Virus record (IMG/VR): IMGVR_UViG_2579779049_000042
DNA length: 4,968 nucleotides
Source of the DNA: a virus
Lineage: Duplodnaviria > Heunggongvirae > Uroviricota > Caudoviricetes
Reading direction: 5' to 3' (one strand)
Below are positions 331 through 1,652 of the stretch, one piece after another. Position 1 is the first letter of the stretch, and every line of letters begins with the position of its first letter. The notes under the pieces were generated by a model. That model made no database searches, was not told where the DNA came from, and saw only the letters and a list, made by a program, of their open reading frames with translations. A program made the position numbers and the translations under genes.

Positions 331-912
331 GTTTCGCAATTTTTTAAGTTTCTGTTGATACTCCGCCTTGATGGCCCTGCACTCTTCGACAGTCCAGCGA
401 TAGCGGTTATGGTTTGATTCGATTTCCTCTACTGCTTCCTGCCCGATGCGGCTAATCAGTTCGACGCGATACGGAACGAGATTTCCGCTTTTGTGCTGGT
501 TGCACACCACGCATTGCTTGTGAATATTGCGTTCATCAAATCGGAGTTGAGGTGCCGCAGCAGTTGTCCGGTAATGTCCGGCATCCCACTGAGCAGACGT
601 GAGCGTTCCGCACGAGATACATGGTAAGTCGCGGTCTCTTTCTCTGATGAAGGCGTTTACGGCTTGTTGGGCTTGTTTAATCCAGTAACTGCGGGGCTTT
701 AAGGCGAGTTTTCGAATCTTCAGTTTATCTTTCTGTTTCTGCTCCTCTCGTCGTAGTTTCTTCTCTGCTGCTTTTTCCGCTTTTTCACGTTCTTTACTTC
801 GTCGTTCGAGTGCTATCTTGGTTCCACAAATCTCATTACACCAATATTGATTTTGATATTTTGGTATAAACCATTCATTGCAACATTTACATTTCCTTCG
901 ATAGATTCGCAT
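328..912 (-). CDS. ninG: NinG/Rap-family recombination protein (lambda NinG homologue): N-terminus rebuilt with a new start, native C-terminus displaced by the IS
   Basis: From ATG 912..910 the product is [52 protein letters not shown]...[29 protein letters not shown]...[28 protein letters not shown]..., which I recognise as lambda NinG (Cys-rich N-terminus, basic linker). SD AAAGGAG (minus strand, 924..918) lies 5 nt upstream of the ATG. The stop TGA is the reverse complement of 328-330, i.e. the last three bases of the IS. The track start at 972 is a TTG and less likely. Confidence 0.8.
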
Positions 913-1453
913 AAGTGCTCCTTTCGTTGCCGGAAAAATCACCGTAATACTTATCTCGGGCTTCTTCAGCAACTAGTACCGCTAACTCCAGATCATCAAA
1001 GCATCCGAAGTGTTTACTCTTGCCATGGAATCCTAGCCTAACATTCCATTTTTTCTGTCGTTTGTGCCAAGTAACCCCTCTGCAACCTGATTTGCTATTC
1101 TTTCGGATCCTTATATTTCTTGAATTTTCTATTGGCAGGCATTCTCTTAAATTTTCTGGCCTATTGTCGGTCCTAATTCCATTAACGTGGTCAATTTGAC
1201 CAGCAGGCCAACGATTATGAGTTATGTAAAAAACTAAGACGTGAGTTTTATATCTACGCCCATCTATCATGATCATTGAATAACCGTTGGAATCAAAAGT
1301 TCCAGCAACACTATTTAATGCTATCCTTCCCTGAGTGGGAACTTTCCATCTAAATACCCCGGTAGATTTATCGAAACTTAGTAACTCAAATATCCTTTTA
1401 ACAGTTAAATCTTCTCTTTTACGGTTACATCGTCTTCGCGCTGGTTTAGCCAT
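887..1453 (-). CDS. HNH-AP2 homing endonuclease, translationally fused to the first ~9 codons of ninG
   Basis: ATG 1453..1451 is preceded by GGAGG (1467..1463). The product begins MAKPARRRC (NinG N-terminus as I recall it), then ...[16 protein letters not shown]...[57 protein letters not shown] (HNH motif), then [52 protein letters not shown] (AP2-type DNA-binding domain). Stop TAA at 889..887. The track start at 1534 is a GTG. Visibly lower G+C than ninG. Confidence 0.8.
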
Positions 1454-1652
1454 CGCCTTCTTCCTCCGTAATGGTTTTCTGAATTTGGCCACCTGAACAG
1501 AGCTCACCAAAGCTATGGATGTCGGTATTTCCACAATACCAAGATGGCGAAAATAACTGCATGATAAGCCTCAGGGAAAAGGGAAGACACTACCCCCGAT
1601 AATTCAGAAACAAATCGAAATACATGAACTAAAGAAAAAACCACAACAAACA

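Follow-up and report, generated by a model that had tools for sequence, protein, structure and literature searches.

What is a homing-endonuclease-type gene doing inside the 5' end of ninG (rap), a recombination gene of lambdoid phages, and did it arrive there by its own activity or as a passenger? The question is raised by a stretch of 4,968 nucleotides from the virus record IMGVR_UViG_2579779049_000042 (Caudoviricetes), hereafter the window, which is 100% identical to a degraded lambdoid prophage of 95NR1, a strain of Escherichia coli that makes Shiga toxin (STEC). A preliminary description of the window had proposed that such a gene is nested in ninG, and this is indeed what is found, in the form of an open reading frame (ORF) with HNH_3 and AP2-type domains followed by one for NinG. 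On balance we think it rather probable that the former belongs to a free-standing homing-endonuclease cassette of the T4 seg/mob kind, which sits inside the 5' end of ninG and has spread by break repair. Homing endonucleases have to our knowledge been studied mainly in virulent phages (T4, T5, ICP1), and their role in temperate lambdoid phages has hardly been described. As the preliminary description had suspected, no paper on the ninG arrangement was found in the literature searched, and public annotation reads only 'HNH endonuclease' next to 'NinG'.

Boundaries of the cassette and the replaced gene start

Alignment with lambda and other endonuclease-free ("empty") ninG alleles, an approach already recommended in the preliminary description, defines the limits of the foreign DNA. 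With ninG of lambda and of the strains Origami2-DE3 and B27 as empty references, the junctions were placed by anchored ungapped comparison; a global MAFFT alignment misplaces the left one. By this measure a cassette of 596 nt (window 1424-829) stands in place of 64 nt of the empty alleles, with a left break after nucleotide 29 of ninG, in codon 10 (window 1425/1424), and a right break at about codon 29 (window 829/828), where TGTGGAACCAAG... resumes. The left junction, CGATGTAA joined to CCGTAAAAG, is identical in 61 of 61 carrier loci compared, and the recoded ninG start at the other end of the cassette is in 61 loci invariant except for rare single-base variants.

What remains to the left of the cassette is the beginning of a lambda-type ninG. 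Window 1466-1425 agrees with lambda and other endonuclease-free ninG at 40 of 42 positions, that is at 29 of 29 coding and 11 of 13 upstream ones, and in other carriers at least 350 nt further upstream, across ninF and ninE, are homologous as well, at about 96%. On the evidence of these matches the likeness of the peptide MAKPARRRC to the ninG start is far beyond chance, and the earlier notion that the endonuclease uses the native ninG start is upheld. The stub consists of 13 nt (1454-1466) from the end of ninF and the Shine-Dalgarno region, followed by the ATG and first 29 nt of ninG (1425-1453), and it now acts as translation start and first nine codons of the endonuclease, a GGAGG being found at 1467-1463, 9 nt ahead of ATG 1453. 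The ORF as such opens further upstream with a GTG (887..1534 on the minus strand), but RefSeq and the conserved context favour ATG 1453 and hence a protein of 188 amino acids.

On the right, the endonuclease-free alleles align only from window 828 onward, and ninG codons 1-28 (912-829) are, judged from the sequence comparison, foreign as well and part of the same inserted block as the endonuclease, a point overlooked in the preliminary description. The carrier allele has in other words lost 64 nt of the empty allele and had the matching ninG codons recoded, to at most about 60% amino acid identity and to 28.6% GC as against 49% in the 5' end of lambda ninG. In an exhaustive HMMER search the recoded N-terminus was likewise at most about 60% identical in amino acids to any of 150 NinG representatives. 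The endonuclease body has 39% GC and the ninG body 48.5%, which is in agreement with the earlier view that the AT-richer endonuclease was acquired separately. A simple insertion at codons 7-9 with duplication of the target site, as first envisaged, must however give way to the replacement of 64 by 596 nt with breaks at codon 10 and about codon 29, and the RR(R/K)C repeat is present because the locus holds two homologous ninG starts of different origin, not because a target site was duplicated. An imperfect 20-nt tandem repeat spans the left junction (Table 1); noticed post hoc, it may be a scar left by microhomology or template switching when the parts were first joined, or it may be due to chance.

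The ninG gene restarts from its own AAAGGAG and from ATG 912 inside the 3' end of the endonuclease, and the 26-nt overlap in different frames and both Shine-Dalgarno sites read just as first described. The two starts are 541 nt apart, and the frames therefore differ. The idea of a built-in translational restart stands in so far as ninG has an independent Shine-Dalgarno site and ATG, but the overlap is long for coupling by termination and reinitiation and no RNA structure is evident, the folding energies at both translation starts being the same as those of shuffled sequences (z 0.2 to 1.1). Carriage by an intron or intein was considered and rejected on the grounds that Rfam detects no intron, that the endonuclease has its own stop codon, and that ninG resumes in a different frame. 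The Rfam search covered the whole window at E<=1 and returned no intron or relevant RNA family, only a spurious plant miRNA match; intron RNA had been named in the preliminary description as evidence that would speak against a nested gene. The cassette furthermore appears to be promoter-less, and a scan of window 700-2000 gave no sigma-70-like promoter site vs 3.5 expected by chance.

The endonuclease and known systems

The endonuclease is recognised by Pfam as an HNH_3 protein (E=4.2e-11, 42.7 bits vs a cut-off of 24.8) and matches PHROG 99, 'HNH endonuclease', at 1.4e-71. The catalytic residues D88, H89, N101, L102, R103 and N110 are invariant in a 15-sequence homologue alignment, and in an 8-sequence alignment N91, D96, N97 and R98 are invariant as well. 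The Pfam match to AP2 (E=1.8e-4) is below the gathering score (22.2 vs 33.3 bits). The best match in the Protein Data Bank (PDB) to the AlphaFold2 (AF2) model, which has a predicted local distance difference test (pLDDT) score of 87.8, is I-HmuI (1u3e), with a probability of 1.0 but E=0.012. Next come plant and apicomplexan AP2 domains, and model residues ~122-173 superpose on the AP2 domains of AtERF1, TEM1 and WRI1 at 1.1-2.0 A over 48-61 alignment columns. The AP2 domain is recognisable by its predicted fold and weak by sequence.

In the model residues 1-16 and 174-188 lack structure, and neither segment is present in homologues. The two ends of the ORF are adaptor segments, of which the N-terminal one is borrowed from ninG and the C-terminal tail continues into the beginning of the new ninG, as far as the first stop codon. 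In-frame ATG, GTG or TTG codons occur at codons 1, 60 and 62 only, and since there is no in-frame start between the first two of these, the endonuclease must rely on the start taken from ninG. Where the context is canonical, this start overlaps the stop codon of ninF, an arrangement that suggests translational coupling to ninF.

A search for relatives, also proposed in the preliminary description, leads to free-standing endonucleases of virulent Jersey-like and T5-like phages and of a T7-like contig, which are 33-44% identical and found in other contexts, adjoining endonuclease I in the T7-like contig and holin or lysin genes in the Jersey-like phages. An ancient association of the endonuclease with ninG was also considered, but is unsupported, as the nearest relatives sit elsewhere. 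The combination of HNH_3 and AP2 domains defines the 'IPA-HNH' class of ICP1, T5-like, Jersey-like and other phages (PMC10448857), and the ninG endonuclease shares with this class its domain architecture and catalytic motif as well as relatives, at the identities just given, that are free-standing near conserved phage genes. It differs from these relatives in that its lineage is isolated, with none between 44% and 99% identity, and known only at the ninG site. Unlike the intron-encoded I-HmuI, it is without an intron. The insertion of a ShiLan-domain HNH element in a phage methylase gene (PMC11855218) is similar in that an HNH element lies inside a phage gene as neither intron nor intein, but that element reads through in frame with its host gene, whereas the ninG endonuclease terminates and ninG restarts in another frame.

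The free-standing endonuclease genes of T4 are promoter-less cassettes that overlap neighbouring ORFs, embed the expression signals of downstream genes and co-convert their flanks (PMC2988022). The ninG cassette is like T4 seg and mob (PMC2988022) in being an apparently promoter-less cassette placed next to a conserved gene, or within it, in a polycistronic operon, in that its ORF overlaps its neighbours by tens of nucleotides and holds the downstream gene's expression signals in its coding region, and in its presence/absence polymorphism with diverged flanking sequence in carriers. It is unlike them in that the host is a temperate lambdoid or Shiga toxin (Stx) prophage as opposed to a virulent T-even phage, that the endonuclease lacks a start of its own and reads on in frame from the nine opening codons of the gene it invaded, that the cassette brings a complete substitute 5' end, and that its cleavage and homing are putative. 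What is particular to the ninG cassette is indeed this temperate host, the ninG/rap site, and the in-frame capture of a gene start combined with a complete substitute for it.

Spread of the cassette and its possible causes

Of 5,426 complete E. coli genomes, 538 have the 512-nt endonuclease-specific part of the cassette, with 564 copies between them that are all full length and at least 99% identical. This part is also found in the inducible Stx1 phages AU6Stx1 and SH2026Stx1, in 57 contigs of IMG/VR and in a prophage of Salmonella Infantis, which has the same cassette. The two parts of the cassette are linked, the recoded ninG start occurring in 532 genomes, always with the endonuclease and never alone; likewise, no ninG beginning with MRIY was found without the endonuclease and the NinG-like first codons ahead of it, and it is a ninG of that kind that would have told against the nested arrangement as first described. 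The endonuclease ORF is intact in 63 of the 66 copies examined. Filled and empty alleles moreover occur in otherwise very similar surroundings: between the methyltransferase gene and Q, the filled locus of the O111:H- strain 11128 is collinear with the empty one of strain B27 and about 98% identical to it, and apart from the exchange of 64 for 596 nt the two differ at 21 of 870 positions to the left and at 32 of 2,000 to the right.

For most of its length the cassette has a nucleotide diversity of 0-0.012, which reaches up to about 0.027 at the 3' end (partly on account of a locus disrupted by an insertion sequence, IS); the ninG body has values of 0.03-0.11, and further out they are 0.2-0.3. 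The break is abrupt on the left, and on the right flanking polymorphism returns within about 10 nt of the boundary. The ninG bodies of carriers are no nearer to each other than to those of empty alleles, and the flanks are mosaic: at least 5 classes can be told apart on the left and 9 on the right, which are combined in 18 ways, the left classes including canonical ninE-ninF, ninX-ninF, a duplicated ninF, an AT-rich opposite-strand gene and an IS30 remnant. One genome holds two copies of the cassette in different prophages (H111 and H151).

If the cassette behaves as the T4 genes do, the endonuclease would be produced in the lytic cycle along with the rest of the delayed-early nin operon and would cut an endonuclease-free lambda-type ninG near its 5' end, whereupon repair of the break from a cassette-bearing phage genome would copy the cassette in, a case of intronless homing. 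The recoded ninG start would keep NinG functional, remove the recognition site and protect carriers. As to its origin, the cassette may stem from an unsampled AT-rich phage lineage with the endonuclease upstream of its own ninG; that the two were already so arranged in the donor is suggested by the very low GC content of the ninG substitute. Entry into the lambda type would then have involved a homologous right join inside ninG and an illegitimate left join, in frame, at or near the cut. A more far-reaching notion is that we are dealing with an active 'gene-start replacement' homing element of temperate phages, which cuts the ninG 5' end, brings along a cleavage-immune start and needs no intron or intein, and whose co-conversion tracts help to drive mosaicism in the late-regulatory and toxin region and allele exchange among co-induced Stx and other lambdoid prophages. 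In this extended form we regard the proposal as unlikely.

A number of observations weigh against a homing cassette. Cleavage, a target site and biased inheritance, that is all activity, are inferred from the behaviour of the T4 free-standing endonucleases. The median number of copies per carrier genome is 1, which gives no sign of efficient conversion, and in 3 of 66 copies residues that are conserved in the 8-sequence alignment, either catalytic or close by, are substituted (N97T, N101S and P83T). An empty lambda-type ninG with the same 64-nt segment furthermore shares a chromosome with the cassette (loci L077 and H4), and no resistance substitutions were found in the empty alleles co-resident with it, the segment being identical to that of lambda; an empty allele beside the cassette is to be expected so long as lysogens keep the gene silent (repressed), yet it is no evidence for conversion. 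It should also be mentioned that many carriers belong to the O157, O111 and O26 STEC lineages, and copy counts are not independent events. Nor was the donor lineage found in the protein, GTDB, N-terminus and NinG searches: among 5.8 billion protein clusters there was no relative of the endonuclease between 44% and 99% identity, the 40-residue N-terminus that begins with MRIY matched nothing but fragments of its own allele, and a scan of GTDB species representatives gave only an unrelated Planctomycetota match. Lambdoid prophages are, finally, notoriously mosaic, and ordinary lambdoid recombination together with clonal expansion can likewise produce varied flanks around a module of 0.6 kb that is itself nearly identical.

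The foremost alternative is that the cassette is a passive passenger, a former homing gene which does not home here now or never did so in E. coli phages, and which as a neutral or mildly useful module has been shuffled by homologous recombination and amplified by the success of STEC. The pervasive mosaicism of lambdoid phages, the many carriers within few clonal groups and the persistence of an empty, apparently sensitive ninG beside the cassette in the same genome are all as one would expect of such a passenger. We nonetheless hold this explanation to be somewhat unlikely, though deserving of serious attention, since an unselected nuclease gene should gather disruptions and the 564 near-identical copies include almost no decayed ORFs, since diversity is near zero across the cassette with flank polymorphism back so close to its right end, and since the catalytic motif is intact and the recoded flank is of exactly the sort that protects carriers of known free-standing endonucleases.

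The location of the gene in the recombination (nin) operon, its intactness in the inducible phages AU6Stx1 and SH2026Stx1, and the marker exclusion that free-standing endonucleases are known to exert in T-even phages (PMC2988022) could also be taken to mean that the HNH-AP2 protein is a domesticated nuclease, which harms lambdoid rivals, co-resident or superinfecting, that have an empty ninG or makes breaks that feed the Red/Orf/Rap recombination pathway around it, and which has spread by benefiting the phage and not by selfish homing. We regard this as quite improbable. Apart from a weak HNH motif there is no match to any known defence-system model, PADLOC having just a marginal one to that motif and NCBIfam none, and such a benefit would in any case be compatible with homing and not exclude it.

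As for ninG itself, the ORF from ATG 912 to the stop codon at 328 on the minus strand matches Pfam NinG (PF05766) at E=2e-83 over profile positions 5-192 of 193, is 91% identical to endonuclease-free NinG and keeps the N-terminal cysteines C8, C11, C25 and C29 that are conserved in representatives of the family. The predicted product is a complete NinG, the region of the C-terminal nuclease motif included, and the host gene is not split. The genes-in-pieces arrangement of the preliminary description, taken to mean that an N-terminal piece of ninG is fused to the endonuclease, the rest is made by translational restart and both are needed as in nrdA/mobE of Aeromonas phage Aeh1, might be read into the nine NinG codons that open the endonuclease ORF and the restart of ninG within it, but is hardly credible, since the downstream ORF alone covers the family profile with its cysteine pattern, and since the nine stub residues recur there (RRKC), hold 1 of the 4 conserved cysteines and are unstructured in the model; with NinG complete downstream and the stub redundant, genes-in-pieces in the sense of Aeh1 nrdA is ruled out. 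A likeness to mobE in Aeh1 nrdA (PMC3045599) does exist, in that an HNH free-standing endonuclease lies inside a phage coding region whose function is apparently preserved, but the Aeh1 host protein consists of two polypeptides that must reassemble (PMC3045599), whereas NinG is encoded whole.

Borne by about 10% of the complete E. coli genomes and by inducible Shiga-toxin phages, and placed within a recombination gene about 1.3-2 kb upstream of Q and stx1, the cassette would, if active, stand ready to drive directional gene conversion between prophages that reside together in STEC. It would then also offer a simple genetic system for the invasion of a coding sequence without its destruction, lambda itself carrying the empty site; if inactive, it is an ordinary mosaic module. 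For annotation purposes, the replaced gene start explains ninG alleles that begin with MRIY and 'HNH endonuclease' entries that begin with MAKPARRRC.

Surroundings of the cassette and variant loci

The features of the window are collected in Table 1 in the order in which they are met along the minus strand.

Table 1. Features of the window, listed along the minus strand
Feature	Position	Strand	Remarks
ORF of unknown function	4624..4968	(+)	PHROG 1229; in strain 95NR1 a hypothetical protein next to excisionase; unrelated to the cassette
NinE	4285..4563		
AT-rich gene	1929..3781	(+)	PHROG 9230; replaces ninF between ninE and the endonuclease
Hexanucleotide repeat	1648..1694		AAATAG (+), TATTTC (-); 7.8 copies; in intergenic region
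Stub of original lambda-type ninG start	1425..1466	(-)	
Endonuclease ORF	887..1453	(-)	HNH_3 nuclease, then predicted AP2-type DNA-binding domain; Pfam, PHROG, AF2 model
Imperfect 20-nt tandem repeat across left junction	1395..1435		minus strand: AGACGATGTAACCGTAAAAG / AGAAGATTTAACTGTTAAAAG; TRF score 52, 80% matches
Endonuclease-specific cassette body	913..1424	(-)	Without homology to endonuclease-free alleles
New ninG Shine-Dalgarno site AAAGGAG	918..924	(-)	5 nt before ATG 912, inside codons of the endonuclease C-terminal tail
Overlap of endonuclease 3' end and ninG 5' end	887..912	(-)	
Replacement ninG 5' end	829..912	(-)	Part of the cassette
Lambda-like ninG body	328..828	(-)	97-100% identical to endonuclease-free ninG from 828 downward
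IS1203 end	1..330		IS3 family; abuts ninG; terminal sequence TGAACCGCCCCGG

The AT-rich gene encodes 590 amino acids when intact, as in AU6Stx1, SH2026Stx1 and locus L004; in the window a 1-nt deletion near 2903 results in ORFs of 328 and 275 amino acids. It has no Pfam, NCBIfam or PADLOC match. The occurrence of this gene without any empty ninG beside it gave rise to the idea that it forms an inseparable unit with the endonuclease, which was rejected since there are carriers with canonical ninE-ninF directly upstream. The hexanucleotide repeat is situated about 235-280 nt upstream of the ATG of the AT-rich gene, its copy number varies widely among otherwise near-identical loci, and it may be a phase-variable or spacing element.

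At the other end of the window, the ninG stop codon TGA (328-330) is made up of the first 3 nt of the IS1203 end, by which the last 9 codons of the gene are gone (the product ends in LRN vs LRNSRSEAA). An IS3-family element with the same terminal sequence is found in strain PK8241 (NZ_CP080139.1, about 3740-5025), here exactly between the AAAGGAG and the ninG ATG; it separates ninG from the endonuclease, the altered C-terminus of which gives a protein of 191 amino acids.

Two further variants concern the cassette and its immediate neighbourhood. Just upstream of the cassette in NZ_CP024131.1 (3274-3423), and also in locus H297, two copies of ninF enclose a fragment with the annotation 'HNH endonuclease signature motif containing protein', which may be what is left of another endonuclease, of a different kind, inserted in the nin region. 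In JHGF01000076.1 (236-433), a rare variant, a lambda-like patch of ~17 nt (TGGTGGTGTTCTCCAGA) with cassette-type sequence on both sides lies within the recoded ninG start, where it causes a +1 frameshift that splits ninG, and this looks like short-patch conversion between filled and empty alleles.

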